Shown here piece by piece: positions 2,024 through 34,580 of a DNA stretch of 64,000 nucleotides. The notes under the pieces are model-generated. The model was not told where the DNA came from. It searched no databases and saw nothing but the letters and a program-made list of their open reading frames with translations. Positions within the stretch are counted from its first letter, which is position 1, and each line of letters starts with the position of its first letter. The translations under genes and the position numbers were made by a program. This DNA comes from Pseudomonadota bacterium (GTDB taxonomy: Bacteria > Pseudomonadota > Alphaproteobacteria > Sphingomonadales > Sphingomonadaceae): NCBI GenBank assembly GCA_963205265.1, contig CAUJJI010000052.1:1266-65265 (forward strand), read 5' to 3'.

Positions 2024-2239
2024 TTGCCACTAGATCGCCACTGAGATTCTCATCTGAATCGAGAAATCTGGCGTAACTAGTTGATACATAAGACCTGGCG
2101 GAGAGAGGGGGATTCGAACCCCCGAAGGGCTGTTAACCCTTCAAAGCCGATTTACCAACGCTTAGACCCACTTACGTACCGCCTTCTGGCTTATCACCGC
2201 TTACCTGTTTTGACCTTTTTGCCACTGGATTTGCCACTA
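2024..2239. repeat. four same-orientation TYGCCACTR repeats flanking the att core (candidate integrase arm-type sites)
   Basis: TTGCCACTA 2024-2032, TCGCCACTG 2035-2043, TTGCCACTG 2219-2227, TTGCCACTA 2231-2239. The 13-mer GATTTGCCACTAG occurs at both 2021-2033 and 2228-2240. Confidence 0.5.
2096..2142 (-). tRNA. 3' fragment of a class II tRNA (Ser-like): variable arm, T arm, acceptor 3' strand and CCA; probable att core
   Basis: The reverse complement reads GAAGGGTTAACAGCCCTTC-GGGGGTTCGAATCCCCC-TCTCTCC-G-CCA. No matching 5' acceptor strand (GGAGAGA), D arm or anticodon arm is found upstream, so it is a partial copy. It lies 30 nt from the int stop. Confidence 0.6.
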
Positions 2240-3371
2240 GTCGATCGACTGCCCTGATGTTCCGGCCGCGGTCGGCCTTCGGGATGTGCTTCGCGTAGGA
2301 TTTCATCATCACCTGGACGCTATGTCCATGCTGGGCGGCTACCCACGCAGGGTCACAGCCGGCCGCTAGGGCGAGCGAGATGGACGTGTCCCGGCACTCC
2401 TTCGGTGGTCGGTAGCGCAGGCCTGTTGCCTTGTTGGCGCGAGCCCATACCGCCGCGATCTCCCGGCCGTCGTTGAACCGGATGCCGGTCGACGGGTGAA
2501 CCCAGACGTGCCGGCCAGCGAGCTGGGTCCGGGCGCGCTGCCGGTTCAACGCCTCGAATGCCCGGGCATTCAGCTCGACGATCCGCCTGGTGTTGGTCTT
2601 CGTGCGGTCCTTGTCCTGGCGCAGCACCCGGGCGCGTTGGATGGTCACGAGCCGGTCGTCGAGACTCACGTCGGGCCACAGCATCCCGATCTGCTCGCCC
2701 GGCCGCAGTCCGGCGAAACAGGCGAACTCGAAGAAGTCGGCCCAAGCCGGGTTGAACTTCTCCAGCCACTTCAGCAGCTTCTCGACCTCGGGGAGCGGGT
2801 AGGGGTCTGGCTCGGCGGCCTGGAATCGCAGGTTCCTGATGCCCTCGACGGGATTGGGGTGTTCGCGGTGGGCCTTGCAGACCATCTCGAACACCCCGCG
2901 CAGCGGGATCAGGATGTTGTTCTGCGTCTTCTCGCCGATCGGCCGGTCGCCGCCGGCCAGGTCGGCGAGGCGTGACAGTATGTCTTCCTGAGTGATCGAC
3001 AGCGCCGGCCTGTCCTTCCAGGCGCTGCTCCAGTAGCACTCCAGGTGGTCCTTGTAGACCTCGAACGTCGAGTGCGCCCGGCCGCGGCTCGCGATCCTCT
3101 CCCAGGCTTTCGCCCACTGGCCGAAGGTCCGGCGGCCATCCGGGGTGTGCTTCTCGGCGAATCGGTAGTCAGGGAAGTGCCGTTCGAGGTTGAACGTCCC
3201 CAGCCGGATCTCGGCGAGGATGTCGGCGCGCAGCCGCCGGGCCGCCCGCAGGTTGGGCTCGGTGGGCCGCAGGGCGAGGGTAGGGCGCAGCCGCCGGCCC
3301 TGCCAGGTGAACGTCACCTGGATCCTGTCCCCGTGGGGTTCAACGCCACCCGTGGACGACCTTCGACCCAT
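2172..3371 (-). CDS. int: tyrosine integrase (399 aa)
   Basis: Start taken at the internal ATG 3371 (MGRRSSTGGVEPHGDRIQVTFTWQGRRLRPTL, an arm-binding-type N-terminus). Catalytic-type motifs are AGLRPGE, CRDTSIS and HGHSVQVMMKSYAKH. Adjacent to the tRNA fragment. The upstream extension of the track ORF looks non-coding. Confidence 0.9.
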   Translation of the reverse strand: MGRRSSTGGVEPHGDRIQVTFTWQGRRLRPTLALRPTEPNLRAARRLRADILAEIRLGTFNLERHFPDYRFAEKHTPDGRRTFGQWAKAWERIASRGRAHSTFEVYKDHLECYWSSAWKDRPALSITQEDILSRLADLAGGDRPIGEKTQNNILIPLRGVFEMVCKAHREHPNPVEGIRNLRFQAAEPDPYPLPEVEKLLKWLEKFNPAWADFFEFACFAGLRPGEQIGMLWPDVSLDDRLVTIQRARVLRQDKDRTKTNTRRIVELNARAFEALNRQRARTQLAGRHVWVHPSTGIRFNDGREIAAVWARANKATGLRYRPPKECRDTSISLALAAGCDPAWVAAQHGHSVQVMMKSYAKHIPKADRGRNIRAVDRLVANPVAKRSKQVSGDKPEGGT

Positions 3372-3565
3372 CTGTAGTACCCCTCCATGCTCATCTGGAT
3401 TTGACCGAGCGGGTCGCGCACGAACTCGAACCCCTCCAGCCAGACACCGCGGTGGATCCGCTGGTGGACCGCATTCGGCTTGATGCCGGTCAGATTGTGA
3501 AACACTGACAGCCGGACGTATCGGGCGGTCATGCGCTGATCGGTTGCGGGCTCGCTCACCGCCAT
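3314..3565 (-). CDS. xis: excisionase-like DNA-binding protein (83 aa)
   Basis: YVRLSVFHNLTGIKPNAVHQRIHRGVWLEGFEFVRDPLGQIQMSMEGYYRWVEG resembles excisionase-like (DUF1233-type) proteins. It overlaps the int start by 58 nt, as in lambda xis/int. Confidence 0.7.
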   Translation of the reverse strand: MAVSEPATDQRMTARYVRLSVFHNLTGIKPNAVHQRIHRGVWLEGFEFVRDPLGQIQMSMEGYYRWVEGRPRVALNPTGTGSR

Positions 3566-3840
3566 TCCTCCGGGACGATCGGAAACTCATCCAGCGGCCT
3601 GTTCAGCGTCACGGTGACCGGCCCGTGCCGCATGTCGCCGGTCATCTGGCCGTCCAGTTGCCGGCGCTCGCTGTCGTTCAGGTTGCGCCACTTCGCGAGC
3701 ACGACGCCGTTGGTGGCCAGGCCGCGCGGCTGATGCTGCTGACACGGTCCTGCGCTGATGCCGCGCTCCCGGCACCATGCCTCGGCCGCCCGCTTGGCCG
3801 CGAACTCGGGCGTGTCGTCGAATGTGATGGAGTATGGCAT
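3556..3840 (-). CDS. hypothetical phage protein (94 aa)
   Basis: ORF track; start and stop overlap the neighbouring genes. Confidence 0.6.
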   Translation of the reverse strand: MPYSITFDDTPEFAAKRAAEAWCRERGISAGPCQQHQPRGLATNGVVLAKWRNLNDSERRQLDGQMTGDMRHGPVTVTLNRPLDEFPIVPEEWR

Positions 3841-17870: not shown

Positions 17871-17926
17871 ATTACACATCATGTTTATCTTGAAGTCAAC
17901 AAGATGTGTAATTCGAAGGTGTAAAT
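17871..17926 (-). promoter_or_regulatory. PL-like sigma70 promoter with repressor operators
   Basis: The minus strand reads TTGACT (17899-17894) - 17 nt - TGTAAT (17876-17871). A perfect inverted repeat ATTACACATC (17871-17880) / GATGTGTAAT (17903-17912) overlaps -10 and -35. A third half-site GGTGTAAAT lies at 17918-17926. Confidence 0.65.
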
Positions 17927-17949: not shown

Positions 17950-17973
17950 AATGAAGAGCCCGCCCCGGCGGGC
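17950..17973 (-). terminator. probable intrinsic terminator after the cargo cassette
   Basis: Minus strand GCCCGC-CGGG-GCGGGC hairpin followed by TCTTCATT, 8 nt after the stop of the 17982-18926 gene. Confidence 0.5.
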
Positions 17974-17981
17974 GCGGGGCG

Positions 17982-18926
17982 TCAGTCGCCGACCCAGGGG
18001 CGCGTGATCGCTTGCCGCAGGAAGGCGGACGAGCGCGTGTCGCTGTCGATGGTCGTTAGGAGAAGGCGTTCAAGTGCCCAGCAGTCGGCGAGCGCCGAGT
18101 GCGGTTGCGGCCGCTTGATACCGAAATGCTCGCAGAGCGCGTCCAGGGACTGGCGACCTCCCGTCCTCCAGCGAACCGACCGGATGGAGCATGCCCAGTT
18201 CATGCCGGAAATCTGCGGAGCCAGCCGAGCCAGCATCCGCCGATCGAACGCTGCGTTGTGGGCAATGACGACGTCAGCCTGCAGGAGGATTCGCGCGATG
18301 GCCTGCCAATCGAAGCGCTGGCCGCGAAGGTCTTCGATGCTCTTGCCGTGTACCTGCTGCGCCTTCGGATGGATCGGCACCCGCGGCTCTCGGTAGCCTT
18401 CGTAGGACAGATGGTGAGTGACTAGATGGCCGTTTTTCGTCCTAACCTCTATCAGGATGCCGCCGAAGCTGATTGGCTCGTCCTCCTCCGCCAGGCCGGT
18501 TGTCTCGGTATCGACTATCGCAACGAGCGTGTGATCGGGCTGGGCGTAGACCTTCCCGTGGCCGACCTTCAGTTCCGATGCCGTGAGATTGATCAGCAGC
18601 TCGGCTGCGTTGTCGAATCGTATCCCAGGCTTGTCCGCGAGCCACGCATCGAGGTCGTCGACGGCCTGCCGGCATTCGGCAAGGCGGTCCAACAAGGCCT
18701 GGCCTGTTGGACGCGGAGCGTGGATTAGGGCGTTTGCGCTATCGGTGCGTCGTTGCGCTTCGGCCAGCGTCTCCCGCCACTTCAGGAGGGCGGGACTCGG
18801 CGTCTCGGCCGCTGGCGTTGGTTCGACCTTTTCGGGCTCCGCCGCGCGTTGCTTCGACCGCGACCAAGTGCTGGCGACGACGTAGACGATGAAGCCGACG
18901 ACGAGCAGCGACAGCATGAAGTCCAT
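17982..18926 (-). CDS. membrane-anchored DEDDh (DnaQ/RNase T-like) 3'-5' exonuclease (314 aa)
   Basis: N-terminal TM helix MDFMLSLLVVGFIVYVVASTW followed by basic residues. Exo I VAIVDTETTGL, Exo II VIAHNAAFDRRML, Exo III HSALADCWAL. Confidence 0.8.
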   Translation of the reverse strand: MDFMLSLLVVGFIVYVVASTWSRSKQRAAEPEKVEPTPAAETPSPALLKWRETLAEAQRRTDSANALIHAPRPTGQALLDRLAECRQAVDDLDAWLADKPGIRFDNAAELLINLTASELKVGHGKVYAQPDHTLVAIVDTETTGLAEEDEPISFGGILIEVRTKNGHLVTHHLSYEGYREPRVPIHPKAQQVHGKSIEDLRGQRFDWQAIARILLQADVVIAHNAAFDRRMLARLAPQISGMNWACSIRSVRWRTGGRQSLDALCEHFGIKRPQPHSALADCWALERLLLTTIDSDTRSSAFLRQAITRPWVGD

Positions 18927-18976
18927 ACAAAGGCCAAGGCAGTGTCAGGGCGTCGACTCGGCTCCGAACATCCGCC

Positions 18977-20710
18977 TCACCAGTACCCCGTCATCGTGTA
19001 GTGCACCCCATCGCGCTCATCGATCACGTAGCCACCGATGTTCCCCGACCAGACGTAGCGCCCATAGAGACCGCACATCAGCCGCTTGAACGGCTCGGTC
19101 CTCACCAGATGCGGCGGAGCGACATAGCCGGGCGGCCCGATGATCGGCTGAGGCGGCGGAAGGTAAACGTCCCAGCAGACGCGCATCACGTCGGGTCGCT
19201 CGGCCATAGTGGTCAAGACAAGTTTGACCGTGTAGCCGTCACGGGACCAAGTCCCGACCGTAGTGTTGAGCGGCAATCGCCCGCTGGCGATGTTGACCCG
19301 TGAGCCCGCGTACGACTCCCCGTTGGCCTCCACGCCGGCGATGACGCCGTCGGCAATGATCGCTTTGACACGGGTGTCGTCGTAGATCCCGACCCCGAAG
19401 GCGCTCGGAAAGCCGTCGCCCAGGCGGTTGGCGCCCATCTCATAGCGCCCATAGCTACCGAGCAGGATACTGGCCTGGCCGTCAGCGGAGGCCAATGTGT
19501 GGGCGTGGGTGTAGGGGTTGCCGGACTTCGCCGGATCCTCGGAAATGCCCTGGTAGAGGACAGCCCCGATGAGGCCTGCGTCGACGGTGTCGTCAGTGAC
19601 TGCAGGCGGTTGCGGTGCGGGCGGCGTGGGGGTGGGATCCGGAGCAGGGGGCGGCTCTGGCGCCGGGCTCGGGGTGGGTGGCCGTGATGCCGTTGGCGCC
19701 CAATCCTTGCCATCCCACGTCCAGTAGACGGTCTTGGATGATGCGTTGTACCCGGTAAGGACGGTGAGCTTGGCAGCGGAGTCGTACCTCATGTCGCTAC
19801 CACTGTAGACCACGCACGGCGTCGGCGGCGTCCCGGGCCTGCCCTCGATGCATGGAGAATCGGAAAAGGGGAATGCGGTCCAGCGTTCGCCATCCCACTC
19901 CCAGGTGTCGAAAACGCTGACCCCGGATCCACCGGGAGATCCGCCGAATAGCACCAGGCGCTTTCTGTCGGTGTCGAACGACACCTTGTGATACCCGCGC
20001 TGCGGCGGAGGATTCGCGCCAGGCAAGCTGGTCCATCCGGAGCCGTCTAGTCGCCATAGGGCTATAGGGCCGTCTATGGAGGCGGACACGAGAAGCGGAA
20101 GGCCTTCCGGTGTCGATGTAAGGGCTGCCACCGGGAGGGTTGGGGGCACAATCGCCGTTCTTGCATTGGTCCATACCCCGGCCTCCCGTACCCAAGTCGC
20201 CTTGATCCCAATTCTTTCGCGTCCAAACGAAGTCACGCCACCGATCACGACAGTGCGTTGCCGCACCGAATCTGTGACCCAAGTGCTACCTCCCTCGATG
20301 AAGTCTGGCACGTTGGGCGTGCTGCAGAAGACACGAGTCGCGCCGCCGCTGGCAAACGTGACACGGAAGTTCACGTTGTTCGCGTCCTGCACGCGGATGT
20401 TGTCCAGGGTCTGCGGTTCTCGACCCGTAACCGCCACGACACCGCATGACTGTTCGGACCACGTGAAGTTCCCGACGGCTGATGATCTGCCGGTGCCGTC
20501 CTTGAACGCCACGAAGTCGTAGGAGGTACCGGAACTGTTCTGGCAGCGCCAGACGCTCTCGGCGGCTGCGAGCGAGGTGCCGTTGAGCAGCGACTGAACC
20601 GGCGACCCGCAGGCCTGCGGATTCGCCGACACCGCCGAATCCGATCCTCCGCCACCTCCGCACCCGGCCAACAGCACCACCGCAACCGCGATCCCCGTCG
20701 TTCTCATCAT
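18977..20710 (-). CDS. lipoprotein with Kelch-like repeat region and Pro-rich linker (577 aa)
   Basis: Start taken at ATG 20710 with GGGAGGGG SD. Signal plus lipobox MMRTTGIAVAVVLLAGC. Kelch-like RGYHKVSFDTDRKRLVLFGGSPGG...FDTWEWDGERWTAF. Linker PTPSPAPEPPPAPDPTPTPPAPQPP. The upstream 72 codons of the track ORF were rejected. Confidence 0.75.
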   Translation of the reverse strand: MMRTTGIAVAVVLLAGCGGGGGSDSAVSANPQACGSPVQSLLNGTSLAAAESVWRCQNSSGTSYDFVAFKDGTGRSSAVGNFTWSEQSCGVVAVTGREPQTLDNIRVQDANNVNFRVTFASGGATRVFCSTPNVPDFIEGGSTWVTDSVRQRTVVIGGVTSFGRERIGIKATWVREAGVWTNARTAIVPPTLPVAALTSTPEGLPLLVSASIDGPIALWRLDGSGWTSLPGANPPPQRGYHKVSFDTDRKRLVLFGGSPGGSGVSVFDTWEWDGERWTAFPFSDSPCIEGRPGTPPTPCVVYSGSDMRYDSAAKLTVLTGYNASSKTVYWTWDGKDWAPTASRPPTPSPAPEPPPAPDPTPTPPAPQPPAVTDDTVDAGLIGAVLYQGISEDPAKSGNPYTHAHTLASADGQASILLGSYGRYEMGANRLGDGFPSAFGVGIYDDTRVKAIIADGVIAGVEANGESYAGSRVNIASGRLPLNTTVGTWSRDGYTVKLVLTTMAERPDVMRVCWDVYLPPPQPIIGPPGYVAPPHLVRTEPFKRLMCGLYGRYVWSGNIGGYVIDERDGVHYTMTGYW

Positions 20711-21262: not shown

Positions 21263-21616
21263 TTAGTCACGTATCGGCGCCTCCCCGTCGGGTTGCTCTG
21301 CGCTCGCCAAGACGAGCGCGATCTGATGAAGCCGGTCGGCCGCTTTAGCGAACAGCCCATGAGATTCGGCCATGGCATCGGCGGCACTGCGTAACTCTCC
21401 GACCGGATTATCGGCACTCGCGCCGACTCCCTTGATGCTCTCAGCCAGAGCGATCTGCGATGCCAGGATCGACACGCCTACGCCCTGGAGGCTTGTCAAG
21501 ACTTCAGTGATCATCTGAATGATGGCCACCTGAACGGTGCTCGAATACGGCGCTTCTTTCGCCGCCGATCTTGCGATCTTGAGTACACGCTCGAAGTCTG
21601 CATCGCTGATGGCCAT
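21263..21616 (-). CDS. small helical hypothetical protein (117 aa)
   Basis: Start taken at ATG 21616 (MAISDADFERVLKIARSAAKE). It lies 88 nt downstream of the repressor gene on the same strand. Confidence 0.55.
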   Translation of the reverse strand: MAISDADFERVLKIARSAAKEAPYSSTVQVAIIQMITEVLTSLQGVGVSILASQIALAESIKGVGASADNPVGELRSAADAMAESHGLFAKAADRLHQIALVLASAEQPDGEAPIRD

Positions 21617-21704: not shown

Positions 21705-22418
21705 TCACCGCGGATAGATCGCCGCGACTTTGTGGATTGATTCGATCTTGTCCAGCGACTCGGTCAGCCCCGGGTACCCGGGGTTCAGTGACCCGAAAGC
21801 GGCCTCGCCGTCGCGGATGTAGAGCAGCTTTTTCAGGGCCTTGCGCTGATCTTTCAGGCGGACGACGACGGTGTCTCCGGGCTGCGCCTCGACGCCGGGC
21901 ACGACGAGGATGCGATCGCCCGAGCTGAACTTCGGGGCCATCGAGTCACCCCGCACCCGCCGCGCGTAGGCGCTCTTGTCCCTGGATGCATTCGGCACCC
22001 GCCCGTCGCCGTGACCGGGCGGGTATCCGTACTCATCGAAGAACCCGTCTGGCCCGCCCAGCACGTCCCCAACGACAGGCGACCACCCGCCATCGGGTGG
22101 CGCTTCCGCGTCCTCCAGTTCGTCGTCGATCTTCGGCCGGCCCGAGCCTCCTGTCCCCTCGGGTTTCCCCTCTGGGTGGGTTTTCACGGGGGAGGAAGCG
22201 GTCTTGGTCAGGTCTTCGGGTAGTGGCTGTCGACCCGTCAACTGGTCAATGGTGATACCGAGCGCGTCCGCGATCTTTCCGTGACGCCACGTTGGTAGGT
22301 CGCGACTTTTCCAGTTTGTGACATCGGACGACGACGCGCCGACCTTCTCGGCGAGCTGGGTCTGATTCCAGCCGCGAGCCCTCATCACGAACAGAGCGAT
22401 GTCGACAGGTCGATCCAT
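21705..22418 (-). CDS. cI: CI-type phage repressor (N-terminal XRE HTH plus C-terminal S24/LexA-like peptidase)
   Basis: WNQTQLAEKVGASSSDVTNWKSRD helix-turn-helix. RRVRGDSMAPKFSSGDRILV with downstream K (RKALKKL) matches the S24 Ser/Lys dyad region. Divergent from the Cro-like gene. Confidence 0.9.
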   Translation of the reverse strand: MDRPVDIALFVMRARGWNQTQLAEKVGASSSDVTNWKSRDLPTWRHGKIADALGITIDQLTGRQPLPEDLTKTASSPVKTHPEGKPEGTGGSGRPKIDDELEDAEAPPDGGWSPVVGDVLGGPDGFFDEYGYPPGHGDGRVPNASRDKSAYARRVRGDSMAPKFSSGDRILVVPGVEAQPGDTVVVRLKDQRKALKKLLYIRDGEAAFGSLNPGYPGLTESLDKIESIHKVAAIYPR

Positions 22419-22451: not shown

Positions 22452-22480
22452 TTACACGCTGTGTTGACTTTGATCTAAAC
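22452..22480 (+). promoter_or_regulatory. left half of a split PR-like promoter (operator half-site plus -35)
   Basis: TTACACGCTGTG-TTGACT(22464-22469)-TTGATCTAAAC parallels the PL architecture. It is interrupted by the IS insertion. Confidence 0.55.
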
Positions 22481-22554
22481 CCCCTCTGTCAAGATAGTTG
22501 GCATGTCGACCGATGCCAGAATTCTTGAATCGAGGGGCAGTTAGGAAAGTCAGG

Positions 22555-23046
22555 ATGTCGAGGTATACGAAAGAGAAGAAGGAGCACGCGCTGGGGCTGA
22601 TGAGCCCACCGCAGAACCTGCCGACAGCGGAGGTGTCCAGGCGCACGGGGATCAGCGAGCCGACGCTGTACGGCTGGCGCAACCAGGCCCGGGCAACGGG
22701 GCGAGCGGTGCCGGGAGACGGCAGCAATGCCGAGGATTGGAGTGCGCAGGACAAGTTCGCGGTAGTGGTCGAGACGATGGGGCTGGCCGAAGCAGAACTG
22801 GCCGAGTACTGCCGGCGCAAAGGCCTGTACGTCGAGCAGATCGAGCGCTGGCGCGAGGCTTGCCTGCAGGCTAACGCCGGTGGCACCGAGCGAGTCAGCG
22901 CGACGGCGCTGGCCGAGGAGCGACGGCGCAGCCGAGGGCTGGAGAAGGAACTGCGACGCAAGGAGAAGGCGCTGGCGGAGACGGCGGCGCTGCTGGTGCT
23001 CAGCCGAAAGCTCGAGGCGTTGTGGAACAAAGGCGAGGACGCATGA
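22555..23046 (+). CDS. IS3-family transposase OrfA (HTH)
   Basis: Start taken at ATG 22555 (MSRYTKEKKEHALGLM...EVSRRTGISEPTLYGWRNQ), followed by a leucine-zipper-like C-terminus. Confidence 0.85.
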   Translation: MSRYTKEKKEHALGLMSPPQNLPTAEVSRRTGISEPTLYGWRNQARATGRAVPGDGSNAEDWSAQDKFAVVVETMGLAEAELAEYCRRKGLYVEQIERWREACLQANAGGTERVSATALAEERRRSRGLEKELRRKEKALAETAALLVLSRKLEALWNKGEDA

Positions 23047-24086
23047 CAGCGTTGCCGCAACGCCAGGAACTCGTCGCGCTGGTGCGGGCGGCGCAGGCCA
23101 GTGGCGCCCGGCTGAAGCCGGCCTGTGAGGAACTGGGTATCTCGCTGCGCACCTGGCAGCGCTGGAGCGACGGCGAGCAAGTGCCCGCCGATGGCCGGCC
23201 GCAGGCAAAGCGGCCGGTGCCGGCCAACAAGCTCAGTGCCCAGGAGCAACGCGCGGTGCTGGACACCTGCCTGCAGCCGCGCTTCGCGGACATGCCGCCG
23301 ACGCAGATCGTGCCGATTCTGGCTGATGAAGGCTGCTACCTGGCCAGCGAATCGACCTTCTACCGACTGCTGCACGCTCACGATGCGCAACAGCACCGGG
23401 GTCGGCAACGACAGCGCTGCCGCAAGCCGGCGCCGATGCACGTCGCTCGCCGGCCCAATGAAATTTGGTGTTGGGATGTCACGTACCTGCCCAGCCAAGT
23501 GAGGGGCCTGTTCTTTTATCTGTACGCCGTCATCGACCTGTACAGCCGAAAGATCGTCGCCTGGGAGGTGCACGCCGCCGAGAACGGTGAGCTGGCCGCC
23601 GAACTGATCGAACGGGCCCGCTGGCGCGAGCATCTGCGAGGCAAGCCCGTGATCCTGCACGCCGACAACGGCGCGCCTCAGCGTTCGCTGACCTTGCGCG
23701 CGAAGCTGCGGGAACTGGGCATCGAGCCCAGCTACAGCCGGCCCGGCGTCAGCGACGACAACGCCTTCATCGAGTCCTGGTTCCGTACGCTGAAGTACAT
23801 GCCGGCCTGGCCCAGCGTCGGCTTCACCGATCTTGATCAGGCTCGCGCCTGGGCGCTGAAGTTCATCGACTGGTACAACGGCTCGCATCGCCATCGCGGG
23901 ATCGGCTTCGTCACCCCGAAACAGCGTCACAACGGCCAGAGCAAGGCCATCCTCGCTCGTCGTCGCGACGTCTACGAAGCTGCCAGGCGCGCTCATCCCG
24001 AGCGCTGGAAGCGCGACATCCGGCGATGGTCCGAGCCCGATCATGTCTGTCTCAACAAGCGTGAACAGGAGAGGCGTTCCGCATAG
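23043..24086 (+). CDS. IS3-family transposase OrfB (DDE/rve integrase core)
   Basis: ATGA overlap with the orfA stop, in the -1 frame. DDE context WCWDVTYL, LHADNGAPQ, SDDNAFIESWFRTLK. Confidence 0.9.
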   Translation: MTALPQRQELVALVRAAQASGARLKPACEELGISLRTWQRWSDGEQVPADGRPQAKRPVPANKLSAQEQRAVLDTCLQPRFADMPPTQIVPILADEGCYLASESTFYRLLHAHDAQQHRGRQRQRCRKPAPMHVARRPNEIWCWDVTYLPSQVRGLFFYLYAVIDLYSRKIVAWEVHAAENGELAAELIERARWREHLRGKPVILHADNGAPQRSLTLRAKLRELGIEPSYSRPGVSDDNAFIESWFRTLKYMPAWPSVGFTDLDQARAWALKFIDWYNGSHRHRGIGFVTPKQRHNGQSKAILARRRDVYEAARRAHPERWKRDIRRWSEPDHVCLNKREQERRSA

Positions 24087-24129
24087 ATCCCTTCTTGCTC
24101 GACACGCCATCTATCTTGACAAACACCGC

Positions 24130-24145
24130 AAACATCGTGTGTAAT
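24130..24145 (+). promoter_or_regulatory. right half of the split PR-like promoter (operator half-site plus -10)
   Basis: AAACATCG-TGTGTAAT. The -10 TGTAAT (24140-24145) ends 6 nt before the cro ATG (24152). Confidence 0.5.
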
Positions 24146-24151
24146 GTATGA

Positions 24152-24454
24152 ATGGCCGACGCTGATCAAATACACCGTCTCGAGACGCCACAAGGCATGG
24201 CCGTCGATGCCGCAGGCGGTCCGGCGGCCGTCGCAAGCACGATAACGCGACTCACCGGGCGCGATATCTCGATCCAGCGACTTTGCAACTGGATGACGCG
24301 GGGCGTACCGGTGGAGTTCTGTCGGCCGTTCGTAGAAGCGGTCGATGGGCTGGTCTCGGTTGCCGACCTCCGTCCCCATGACTGGGATCTGATCTGGCCC
24401 GAGCTAGTCGACGTCGACCACCCCGCTCCCAACCCCGAGCGAAGCGAGGCATAG
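24152..24454 (+). CDS. cro: Cro/YdaS-like DNA-binding protein (100 aa)
   Basis: Divergent from cI. AVASTITRLTGRDISIQRLCNWMTRGVPVEFCRPFVEAVDGLVSVADLRPHDW resembles YdaS/Cro-family proteins. Confidence 0.7.
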   Translation: MADADQIHRLETPQGMAVDAAGGPAAVASTITRLTGRDISIQRLCNWMTRGVPVEFCRPFVEAVDGLVSVADLRPHDWDLIWPELVDVDHPAPNPERSEA

Positions 24455-25102: not shown

Positions 25103-25489
25103 TCATTCGCCTTCATCAGTGGTTGACGGACCGGATTCTGGAGCGGGTCTTTGGCCCTCAGATGGACTCGCCGAGGTACGTCGCACCAGAAAGTCGGTCC
25201 GGTCGCGAAAGCCGGCCAGATGGAGGTGGTTCGTCGTGATCTGCCCGGATACATCGAACAGGGATACGTGGTCGACCGGTGCCCCCGGTATCGCGAGGTC
25301 CCGGTACAGCAGGTCGATCGGCTTGGCCGACAAGCCGCAGATTGCCACCGAGTTCTCGTCGGTCAGGGCGGTCTCGAACTCGGCGAACTCGCGTCGGACG
25401 CAGGCCATAACCCGCTGCGCTCGTGCCGCCTTGTCGATGTTGCGTGCGCCCTTCGAAGCGAAGTGGATCAGCAAGAGATATCGAGTCAC
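25103..25489 (-). CDS. reverse-strand orphan protein (128 aa, GTG start)
   Basis: GAAGGGGG SD 5 nt before the GTG at 25489. High GC3 for ~100 codons (TRYLLLIHFASKGARNIDKAARAQRVMACVRREFAEFETALTDENSVAICGL). Divergent from tnpB. Confidence 0.55.
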   Translation of the reverse strand: MTRYLLLIHFASKGARNIDKAARAQRVMACVRREFAEFETALTDENSVAICGLSAKPIDLLYRDLAIPGAPVDHVSLFDVSGQITTNHLHLAGFRDRTDFLVRRTSASPSEGQRPAPESGPSTTDEGE

Positions 25490-25623
25490 GGTCGCCCCCT
25501 TCGGCGGTCAATCGGTGGTTGGCGCCTCGATTGTCCATCGTTGCGGGGCGACCTCCCCTCCGCAGGTGCCCGCATGAATCCGGACACCGACACCGCCTGC
25601 TGGCAGTCGATGCGAGGCGTCAG

Positions 25624-26667
25624 ATGCAACTGACGTACCGATTCCGGTTGAAAGACAAGCACGACGCCGAGCTGCGTAGGCAGGCCTGCGCGGTCAATTT
25701 CGTCTGGAACTTCTGCGGCGAAACGCAGAGGTCGGCGCTGCGGTGGCGCAAGCAGTGGCCGAGCGGGTATGACCTGAACAGACTCACGGCGGGATCGTCA
25801 AAGGAACTCAATCTGCATGCTCACACGATCCAGCAGGTGTGCCAGACCTTCGCCCGATCTCAGGATACCAAACGCAAGCCGATGCTGCGTTGGCGTGGCA
25901 AGAGGTCGCTCGGCTGGGTGCCGTTCAACAAGGGCCATGTCCGGTTCGACGGCGAAGCGCTCGTCTTCCGTGGCGTGCGGTACTTCGCATGGCTGCATCG
26001 CGATCTCACCAATGGCCAGACGTTCGGCGCCGGCTCGTTTTCGCAGGACGCGCGTGGTCGCTGGTACATCAATCTGCCGGTCGAGGTCGAATTTCTCGAC
26101 AATGCGCATGGCGACGCCATTGGAATCGATCTTGGCCTGAAGGACCTGGCGACGATCAGCACGGGCGAAAAGATCGAAGCGCCGCGCTGGTACCGCCGGC
26201 AGCAGGAACAACTGGCGGTAGCGCAGCGGGCGCACAAGAAGAAGCGCGTTAAGGCGATCCACGCCAGAATCGCGAACCAGCGCAGGGATCACCTGCACAA
26301 GCTTTCAACCCGCCTCGTGCGGTCGCACGGGGCGATCTTCGTCGGCAACGTGAATGCAGCCGGCCTGGTGAGAACGAAGATGGCGAAGTCCGTCCTCGAT
26401 GCCGGGTGGGCGACGTTCCGAAAGAACCTCGAGTACAAGGCCATCAGGCATCAGGTTCTGTTCGATGTTGTCAATGAAGCGTTCTCCACCCAGACGTGCT
26501 CGTGCTGCGGGGCCATCCCTGCCAGCAGTCCGAAAGGTAGGGCCGATCTCGGAATGAGGCGATGGCGGTGCTGCGAGTGCGGAGCGGAACACGACCGCGA
26601 CGTGAATGCAGCCCGGAACATTGCCGCTCGCGGACTGGCGAGCCTCGCAGGAGGAGCCCATGCCTGA
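25624..26667 (+). CDS. tnpB: TnpB (IS1341-type RNA-guided RuvC nuclease, 347 aa), no TnpA partner
   Basis: Start taken at ATG 25624 (MQLTYRFRLK). RuvC motifs AIGIDLGLKD and EHDRDVNAARNIAARG. Zinc finger CSCCG...CCECG. Confidence 0.9.
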   Translation: MQLTYRFRLKDKHDAELRRQACAVNFVWNFCGETQRSALRWRKQWPSGYDLNRLTAGSSKELNLHAHTIQQVCQTFARSQDTKRKPMLRWRGKRSLGWVPFNKGHVRFDGEALVFRGVRYFAWLHRDLTNGQTFGAGSFSQDARGRWYINLPVEVEFLDNAHGDAIGIDLGLKDLATISTGEKIEAPRWYRRQQEQLAVAQRAHKKKRVKAIHARIANQRRDHLHKLSTRLVRSHGAIFVGNVNAAGLVRTKMAKSVLDAGWATFRKNLEYKAIRHQVLFDVVNEAFSTQTCSCCGAIPASSPKGRADLGMRRWRCCECGAEHDRDVNAARNIAARGLASLAGGAHA

Positions 26668-34455: not shown

Positions 34456-34528
34456 AGCCGCGTAGAGAAGCAGTCAACTCGTTGGGCTCATAACCCGAAG
34501 ACCGCTGGTGCAAATCCAGCCGCGGCAA
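34456..34528 (+). tRNA. initiator-type tRNA-Met(CAT)-like gene, degenerate
   Basis: Hand-folded cloverleaf. Acceptor AGCCGCG/CGCGGCA with a 1:72 A-A mismatch. Anticodon arm TTGGG-CTCATAA-CCCGA is 1 nt from my recollection of the E. coli tRNA-fMet sequence and has three G:C pairs next to the loop. T arm GCTGG-TGCAAAT-CCAGC. Discriminator A. The D loop lacks GG, the T loop has G at position 55, and the 3' end is CCC rather than CCA. Confidence 0.55.
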
Positions 34529-34580
34529 CCCTGTCTCCTCCACCTCCTCTCTGAGATGGATTGCCCTTCTGGGCGTTTTC

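Follow-up and report, generated by a model that had tools for sequence, protein, structure and literature searches.

The stretch of DNA analysed here, a 64,000-nucleotide segment of contig CAUJJI010000052.1 from a member of the Sphingomonadaceae (hereafter the window), contains a lambdoid prophage in which a gene downstream of the cI repressor encodes a DEDDh-type exonuclease with a predicted membrane anchor at its N-terminus. The best reading of this gene, which is given an even chance of being correct, is that its product would be made in the lysogen as a membrane-tethered 3'-5' DNA exonuclease and would attack the free ends of DNA entering the cell. The computed features behind this reading are the catalytic domain with its intact active site, a terminal anchor that recurs at either end of the protein among relatives, an orientation following the positive-inside rule, and a position adjacent to the prophage repressor. 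From these we infer expression in the lysogen, a DNA substrate and a function in exclusion or defence. The alternatives are, in falling plausibility, a block on incoming single-stranded DNA, abortive infection, activity on RNA, an accessory role in phage replication or recombination, and an exported nuclease.

The assignment to the DEDDh (DnaQ-like) exonucleases with an intact active site, made in the initial annotation, is borne out by profile and alignment. Pfam RNase_T (PF00929) matches residues 137-284 with 48.4 bits (cut-off 24), with a further match, at 4.5e-34, to PHROG 192, 'DNA polymerase exonuclease subunit'. D139, E141, D228, H276 and D281 show no variation in two alignments, one of 9 sequences restricted to the closest relatives and one of 99 sequences, and all five pair with catalytic residues of ExoX and of the PolC exonuclease domain. 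The sequence strings on which the annotation was based are all present: MDFMLSLLVVGFIVYVVASTW followed by SRSKQR at the N-terminus, VAIVDTETTGL at residues 134-144, AHNAAFDRRML at 222-232 and HSALADC at 276-282. The predicted model of the domain has an RNase H-like fold, and a search with it against the PDB returned Pol III epsilon as the best match (2gui, E 1e-9, TM-score 0.72), with further matches to ExoX, the DinG exonuclease domain and a CRISPR-associated DnaQ domain; the entry 4fzx scored E 8e-9, and RNase T structures were also among the matches. Searches of the PDB and BFVD gave matches to the exonuclease domain only, and no entry reproduced the whole architecture.

Ranked by sequence profile, the relatives of solved structure closest to the protein are the PolC exonuclease domain (2e-20), ExoX (2e-12) and epsilon (5e-12), while RNase T is far weaker (8e-5). 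Because the nearest relatives are all DNA exonucleases, the substrate would appear to be DNA rather than RNA. An RNA-directed enzyme, either trimming RNA 3' ends in the manner of TONDO and ISG20 or turning over RNA and small oligonucleotides at the membrane, is improbable. DEDDh domains do act on RNA in RNase T, Orn, ISG20 and TONDO, some TONDO proteins occur in prophages with auxiliary domains, and the RNase T structures returned by the fold search point the same way, but the profile ranking favours DNA exonucleases, a membrane anchor has no obvious rationale for RNA targets in the cytoplasm, and the TONDO proteins are described by their authors as standing apart from other defence DEDDh domains.

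Three curated exonuclease families do not accommodate the protein. It scored well below the cut-offs of the Pol III epsilon subunit models (TIGR01406, 54.3 versus 222.7; NF004316, 45.4 versus 196), as it did for the curated ExoX family, and for the NF006615 (PRK09182) subfamily it reached 109.6 bits versus 207, with just profile positions 49-215 of 307 matched and the C-terminal ~90 unmatched. Because the chain ends 33 residues past Exo III, in a tail that bears the subfamily motif ...RPWVGD, there is no room for a polymerase-binding tail. Two short motifs are absent from epsilon and ExoX: a conserved [RN]-P-W-x-P closes the N-extended proteins (residues 309-314 of the window protein, nucleotides 17985-18002), and G-K-T-x-R-S-x-T-[YF] follows Exo III throughout the family. 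Current databases name the family only as 'exonuclease domain-containing protein' or 'DNA polymerase III epsilon-like', and its genes should not carry the label of a replication-proofreading subunit.

The N-terminal 19-21 residues are the sole stretch of the protein above the Kyte-Doolittle threshold (2.17 over 19 residues), and the summed insertion energy of this helix on the Hessa scale is negative (-0.5 to -1.3 kcal/mol). No lysine or arginine precedes the helix (MDF...), and three basic residues lie within six positions after it (SRSKQR). Hydrophobicity and charge pattern therefore agree on the single N-terminal hydrophobic helix followed by basic residues that had been described earlier. 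Public gene callers start the protein at Met4 (18917), which yields 311 residues (P0001), and the helix is retained with either start. A cleaved signal peptide is not favoured, since a positively charged n-region is lacking and there is no conserved cleavage motif, which gives the segment the look of a signal anchor. By the positive-inside rule, and because lysine and arginine are in excess on the exonuclease side in N- and C-anchored relatives alike, the nuclease domain is predicted to be cytoplasmic, in line with the earlier topology. Both anchor architectures would thus place the catalytic domain at the cytoplasmic face, with almost nothing protruding on the opposite side.

Identical copies of the 311-residue protein are found on eight public contigs, all from one biofilm-metagenome study, and the next best match in a word-indexed search had 51% identity over 57% of the length. 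This result suggested a near-orphan; a profile search then showed a large family. When a profile of the close relatives was run against 1.84 billion representative proteins, 550 clusters were recovered at E<=1e-30. The protein is consequently not a singular oddity, but one member of a large unnamed family. Anchors were surveyed in 154 proteins, comprising the best 150 and close matches, in which the exonuclease domain was located by a local hidden Markov model and an anchor was called when a 17-residue flanking window reached a Kyte-Doolittle value >=1.9, a conservative setting that missed P0004. Under this setting 66 of the 154 members have one terminal anchor, N-terminal in 18 and C-terminal in 48, and 88 have none. 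N-terminal anchors begin at residues 1-7 in 17 of the 18 cases, the outlier being a 525-residue protein with an anchor from residue 55, and the tails beyond C-terminal anchors mostly measure 0-11 residues, with one of 21. The two layouts can be seen in P0004, where the exonuclease domain directly follows an N-terminal hydrophobic helix, and in P0005, P0007 and P0008, where the domain comes first and the hydrophobic helix lies at the extreme C-terminus.

Terminal anchors were detected in 0 of 111 more distant DEDDh homologues, compared with the 66 of 154 family members (Fisher p = 1.4e-19). Within 12 residues of the anchor, N-anchored proteins have on average 3.44 lysines and arginines on the exonuclease side versus 0.17 on the far side, and C-anchored proteins have 2.40 versus 0.65. 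All five catalytic residues are kept in 65 of the 66 anchored members. On a neighbour-joining tree, which is crude and requires 42 parsimony changes, the N- and C-extended forms each fall into a few large blocks. Because anchored and unanchored members are interleaved within these blocks, the anchor seems to have been gained or lost repeatedly. The occurrence of anchors at either end, together with the kept active site, makes it look as if selection has favoured a catalytically active exonuclease that is tethered on the cytoplasmic side of the membrane. This pattern also provides a strong argument against a cleaved signal peptide.

An exported periplasmic nuclease, in which the N-terminal helix would be a cleaved signal peptide, is accordingly the least credible of the alternatives and highly unlikely. 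The V-A-S sequence at residues 17-19 could fit the -3/-1 rule, and a staphylococcal nuclease (SNase)-like neighbour in the locus of one relative bears an export signal. These points are set against the missing positive n-region, a hydrophobic run of 17-19 residues with three basic residues directly after it, and the 48 relatives in which the same catalytic domain is tail-anchored and would be left in the cytoplasm.

In some N-extended members that lack a transmembrane (TM) helix, the chain opens with a short, basic, amphipathic helix, of which MNWLKAFLRFGKK and MSIWKALGRAWGSIFK are examples. Such N-termini were seen in P0147, P0138, P0146, P0131, P0123, P0137 and P0152, and are suggestive of peripheral membrane targeting, with weak statistics (p = 0.04). 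A 302-residue variant, present as the same protein at two loci (L177, 409-1317; L189, 10883-11791), has a helix at residues 231-247 followed by a tail of 55 residues and would be bitopic with a small periplasmic domain instead of tail-anchored.

The family has cultured carriers, Caballeronia sp. S22 (WP_371882209.1) and Burkholderia sp. BCC1998 (WP_321925297.1). A tblastn search with the window protein and a C-anchored relative against 50,697 sequenced phages returned only distant DnaQ proteins of large lytic phages and no close homologue. Profile-pattern scans of GTDB genomes and IMG/VR gave mostly generic PRK09182-like DEDDh proteins, with at most 147 bits against the family profile, and a single in-family find in a Methylotenera metagenome-assembled genome (L036). 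Two family-specific degenerate DNA patterns applied to IMG/VR yielded two usable loci, the above L177 and L189.

Between anchor and catalytic domain, the initial annotation had placed a linker of about 110 residues. This description holds for a short spacer, while the remainder is predicted, with confidence in AlphaFold2, to be a three-helix bundle. From a generic alignment, AlphaFold2 gave a good model of the exonuclease domain only. With an alignment of the N-extended subfamily (A3), the whole chain was modelled confidently, with a mean predicted local distance difference test (pLDDT) score of 92.2 and a predicted TM-score of 0.81. The model consists of a helix at residues 2-28, an unstructured spacer at 29-44, the three-helix bundle at 45-122 and the exonuclease domain at 132-310, the last with pLDDT >90. 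A Pfam scan found no match in residues 22-131 or in 26 homologous N-extensions, and the bundle region is weakly conserved, with 18% mean column identity.

The window contains a prophage of the lambdoid siphovirus type, with an integrase, a recombination module, cI, a Cro-like gene, terminase, portal and a lambda-type tape measure (Table 1). The anchored exonuclease is encoded by the fourth gene downstream of cI on the cI strand, with three genes between, which agrees with the repressor-linked prophage location noted earlier. The recombination module (exonuclease/Erf/NinB) begins just downstream, and a pL-like promoter reads into a 291-residue gene, NinB, Erf and the exonuclease of that module. 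This promoter was read by eye and was not listed by a consensus promoter scan; it is bracketed by an inverted repeat, ATTACACATC/GATGTGTAAT, of operator-like look, and a related -10/operator sequence lies ahead of the cro-like gene. Because it is sited between cI and the leftward early promoter, the gene occupies a position like that of lambda rexAB. Its earlier description as a moron fits in part: it has a terminator-like site of its own, the hairpin with a T-rich tail at 17958-17973, but a crude scan found no promoter of its own, and a last gene of the cI-side block, which the hairpin reads as closing, fits better. In G+C content the gene does not stand out from its surroundings.

The same setting bears on an accessory role in phage replication or recombination, in which the protein would serve as a proofreading subunit or process ends for the Erf/NinB module. 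Relatives are labelled 'DNA polymerase III epsilon subunit' in databases and the recombination module starts just downstream, but the gene precedes the early promoter, on the side of cI, and the terminator separates it from the module. Together with a score far under the epsilon models (54 versus 223), the missing polymerase-binding tail, an anchor that is hard to square with a place in the replisome and the lack of a close homologue among sequenced cultured phages, this makes such a role very unlikely.

The position next to a repressor recurs among relatives. The genomic contexts of twelve other members were looked up; the contigs of one (P0003) were too short, which leaves 12 informative contexts including the window. 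Nine of these adjoin a prophage repressor and 11 are in mobile elements. In the window and in six relatives, the exonuclease gene lies downstream of the repressor on the same strand: directly after a helix-turn-helix (HTH) repressor (P0002), separated from an HTH repressor by an exported SNase-like gene (P0004), two genes past an HTH+S24 repressor with stop and start overlapping (P0007), overlapping the end of an S24 repressor (P0122), six bases past an S24 repressor in Caballeronia sp. S22, where the lambdoid prophage is complete (P0125), and, on an IMG/VR contig, directly after an HTH protein divergent from a cII/primase operon (L189). Two further genes (P0124, P0135) are convergent with and adjacent to an S24 repressor. 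P0008 lies at the integrase/excisionase end of a prophage and P0127 at the cargo end of a P4-like integrative element, while P0005, from Burkholderia, is the sole case in a plain chromosomal context. The remaining neighbour genes differ in every context examined, so that the exonuclease behaves as a self-contained single-gene module.

Exported proteins are encoded between repressor and exonuclease at two loci. At L004 (6557-7018) this is an SNase-like protein with an N-terminal export signal, and at L166 (5102-5470) a 122-residue protein with a classical signal peptide. The L004 type, with nucleases on either side of the inner membrane within one immunity region, would be a notable arrangement. 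In the window, envelope-associated products are encoded by the genes for the coiled-coil protein, the lipoprotein and the exonuclease, three of the four that follow cI.

In the proposed mechanism, an uncleaved N-terminal signal anchor would hold the exonuclease at the cytoplasmic face of the inner membrane, and a flexible spacer with a small three-helix bundle would join this anchor to the catalytic domain. The protein would probably be made in the lysogen, like the products of lambda rexAB, because its gene is the last of the block begun by cI. Once in place, the exonuclease would meet linear DNA emerging through the inner membrane, chiefly the end by which a superinfecting phage genome enters first, and possibly also single strands on their way in. 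Degradation from a free 3' end would leave the invader unable to circularise or recombine. The circular chromosome would be spared, as it has no free ends and the enzyme would be held off the 3' ends of replication and repair in the nucleoid; tethering would at the same time concentrate the nuclease where invading ends appear. Degradation of 3' ends at the inner membrane is proposed because the layout is the same as that of the defence protein SNIPE, built from unrelated parts, and SNIPE has already introduced the idea of a nuclease bound to the membrane where DNA enters. Destruction of DNA at the point of entry, raised as speculation in the initial annotation, may now be regarded as more plausible because of this precedent and the conserved position next to the repressor.

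Several observations weigh against this reading. Tethering is not universal, as 88 of the 154 surveyed members (57%) are without a detected anchor. DEDDh domains can act on RNA, as in the TONDO proteins, which defend against RNA phages. On the 3'-recessed ends of a phage with 5'-overhang cos ends, a 3'-5' exonuclease by itself would not clearly halt the infection. A crude scan found no consensus sigma-70 site in the 50-bp gap at 18927-18976, and insertion of an IS3-family element splits cI from part of the operator/promoter region. Because no promoter of its own was found and an insertion element lies between cI and the operators, expression of the exonuclease in this particular prophage is uncertain. 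Contigs in two wastewater metatranscriptomes are 95-97% identical to parts of the lipoprotein gene, so that a close relative of it is present in RNA-seq libraries from elsewhere, which may also contain DNA; they match the lipoprotein gene and not the exonuclease gene, the sequence of which was found in metagenomic runs only.

A related possibility is that the target is the incoming single-stranded DNA of natural transformation, or of conjugation, and that the prophage thereby blocks recombination that could cure or replace it. ExoX- and epsilon-type DEDDh enzymes, the closest relatives, readily degrade single-stranded DNA from the 3' end, the 3' end leads when transforming DNA passes through its inner-membrane channel, and the exonuclease gene is located in lysogeny modules. 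Mobile elements with transformation-inhibiting DNases exist, such as the Vibrio cholerae integrative and conjugative element that encodes IdeA. SNIPE and Zorya, however, are reported not to block plasmids, which makes the precedent phage-specific, and the contexts show no link of the exonuclease gene to competence genes. This target is considered unlikely as the principal one.

An effector of abortive infection has a slim chance. The anchor would then keep the nuclease inactive until infection releases or activates it, whereupon host and phage nucleic acid would be degraded. Many repressor-linked prophage genes, for example rexAB, act by abortive infection, SNIPE becomes toxic once its anchor is removed, and the predicted three-helix bundle could serve as a sensor or autoinhibitory module. 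On the other hand, no conserved protease, sensor or partner gene accompanies the exonuclease, the neighbours of which vary by context, and an intact circular chromosome would be immune to an exonuclease without a prior break. The reading of a tethered exonuclease that attacks the ends of entering DNA is the preferred one.

Table 1. Features of the window, with positions counted from its first nucleotide
Feature	Position	Strand	Basis or remark
Gene for the 314-residue DEDDh exonuclease, membrane-anchored (predicted)	17982..18926	-	Open reading frame, ATG start
Hydrophobic helix, residues 3-21 (FMLSLLVVGFIVYVVASTW), predicted signal anchor N-out/C-in	18864..18920	-	Kyte-Doolittle, Hessa, AlphaFold2
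Basic cluster SRSKQR and Pro/Glu/Ala-rich spacer, residues 22-44	18795..18863	-	Lowest pLDDT (70-74), no secondary structure
Predicted three-helix bundle, residues 45-122 (helices 45-68, 75-96, 107-122)	18561..18794	-	pLDDT 92-95
DEDDh 3'-5' exonuclease domain, residues 132-310	17997..18533	-	Pfam, alignments, fold search
Exo I (DxE), D139/E141	18504-18512	-	Catalytic
Exo II, D228	18243-18245	-	Catalytic
Exo III (Hx4D), H276/D281	18084-18101	-	Catalytic
Terminator-like G+C-rich hairpin, then T-rich, TCTTCATT	17958..17973	-	9 nucleotides past the exonuclease stop
pL-like leftward early promoter, TTGACT (17894-17899), 17 nucleotides, TGTAAT (17871-17876)	17871..17912	-	Sequence reading
Predicted lipoprotein, 576 residues (MMRTTGIAVAVVLLAGC..., lipobox LLAGC)	18977..20707	-	Upstream neighbour, no family match
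Coiled-coil protein, 128 residues, C-terminal hydrophobic helix	20776..21162	-	Weak DUF7310/XhlA-like matches
Protein of 117 residues, no assigned function	21263..21616	-	First gene downstream of cI
CI-type repressor, HTH and Peptidase_S24	21705..22418	-	Same strand as the exonuclease gene
IS3-family element in the cI-cro operator region	22487..24121	+	Context only
Cro/YdaS-like first gene of the rightward early operon	24152..24454	+	Far edge of the immunity region
Integrase	2172-3590		Beside tRNA-Thr
TnpB-type gene (OrfB_IS605 and Cas12f1-like TNB domain)	25423-26667	+	Early-right region; second insertion element in the regulatory half
tRNA-Met	34456-34530	+	Within the prophage, upstream of the packaging genes

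The IS3 element has 23-nucleotide terminal inverted repeats, an orfA at 22498-23046 and an rve-domain orfB at 23022-24086, and no target-site duplication was seen. Its right end supplies a TTGACA -35 sequence 18 nucleotides before the resident TGTAAT -10 of the cro-like gene, so that the combination looks like a hybrid promoter, and regulation of this prophage may have been altered by the insertion. TTACAC/GTGTAA half-sites recur at 17871-17912 around the leftward promoter, at 22452-22458 upstream of cI and at 24138-24146 at the rightward promoter, and are probably operators of the repressor.

Relationships to known defence DEDDh proteins are confined to the catalytic superfamily, which is shared with Cap18, TONDO, PDC-S48 and the CRISPR-associated DEDDh proteins. 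PADLOC reports a domain-level match to the CRISPR-associated DEDDh model PDLC01247 at 1.1e-25; no cas or CBASS genes lie near the exonuclease gene, which is surrounded by cI, unassigned genes, the lipoprotein gene and phage early genes. The PADLOC match to PDC-S48 (3e-14) covers just positions 6-175 of 411, and the full-length models of 411 and 512 positions are unmatched; ten relatives were likewise matched in part, reaching at furthest about position 237 of 411. TONDO proteins differ in that they act on the 3' ends of RNA phages and are not described as membrane-anchored. Closest to the catalytic domain, by solved structure as by sequence, are ExoX and the exonuclease domains of Pol III epsilon and PolC, with which all five catalytic residues align, but these proteins are soluble and have neither an anchor nor the three-helix bundle. 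Olg1 of the Pseudomonas aeruginosa phage Fc02, a 7.9-kDa exclusion protein co-transcribed with the repressor, is a weak lead only; its authors claim a BLAST match to a DEDDh domain, and the protein is too small for an active exonuclease.

Lambda RexAB and P22 SieA/SieB resemble the window protein in genetic position, on the strand of the repressor between cI and the leftward early promoter, and in membrane association. They have no sequence relationship to it and are channels, membrane proteins or sensors, none of them a nuclease of this class. Full-text literature searches turned up no account of a bacterial DEDDh exonuclease that is anchored in the membrane and linked to prophage repressors.

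DEDDh enzymes had been regarded in the initial annotation as normally soluble, which is not always the case. The mammalian DEDDh 3'-5' DNA exonuclease TREX1 is tail-anchored in the endoplasmic reticulum membrane with its catalytic domain in the cytosol, and removes 'misplaced' DNA. Its order of DEDDh domain, linker and C-terminal TM anchor is the layout of the 48 C-anchored relatives. TREX1 differs in being eukaryotic, and the window protein is anchored at the N-terminus. A TREX1 homologue and TREX2 rank 34-41 in the fold search, and no specific relationship beyond the superfamily was seen.

The closest parallel in architecture is SNIPE (Saxton et al., bioRxiv 10.1101/2025.11.03.685801; cited as Nature 2026 in PMC13434031), whose N-terminal TM helix, with a periplasmic N-terminus, precedes DUF4041 on the cytoplasmic side and a GIY-YIG nuclease at the C-terminus. 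SNIPE is constitutively present in the membrane, where it cleaves phage DNA as it is injected, and is toxic without its anchor; its defining traits include association with tape measure or host entry proteins. The N-terminal regions of its homologues are highly variable, with one TM helix in 59% and two in 7% (10.1101/2025.11.03.685801). By prediction, the exonuclease shares the single N-terminal TM helix with its N-terminus outside, and a middle non-catalytic domain and a C-terminal nuclease that are both cytoplasmic. Both are single-gene systems with a TM helix in part of the homologues only, and the proposed logic is the same, a spatial discrimination between self and non-self at the site of DNA entry. 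The parts are different: SNIPE is a GIY-YIG endonuclease, whereas a DEDDh exonuclease is found here, with no GIY-YIG match in a Pfam scan, and DUF4041 is replaced by a predicted three-helix bundle of about 78 residues. The exonuclease family can also be anchored at either end and is characteristically linked to prophage repressors. Activity has been demonstrated for SNIPE and is predicted for the exonuclease.

It is proposed tentatively, at somewhat less than an even chance, that this widespread, unnamed family of repressor-linked, anchored DEDDh proteins represents a second, independent class of entry-point nucleases beside SNIPE, in which the anchor was gained many times at either terminus. 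Discrimination would then require no sequence, modification or sensor, and would rest on the presence of free 3' ends at the inner membrane and their absence from the chromosome; natural transformation may be blocked as well, guarding the prophage from being cured. The family is readily testable, as it consists of single genes with cultured carriers, in which clean catalytic and anchor mutants are possible. If the proposal is true, a common prophage gene labelled as an exonuclease or epsilon-like protein would be a superinfection-exclusion or defence factor with a very simple mechanism, an exonuclease stationed where foreign DNA ends appear. The principle of immunity by subcellular location, known from SNIPE, would extend to an unrelated enzyme class, and membrane tethering would be a case of convergent evolution, with a bacterial parallel to the tail-anchored TREX1.

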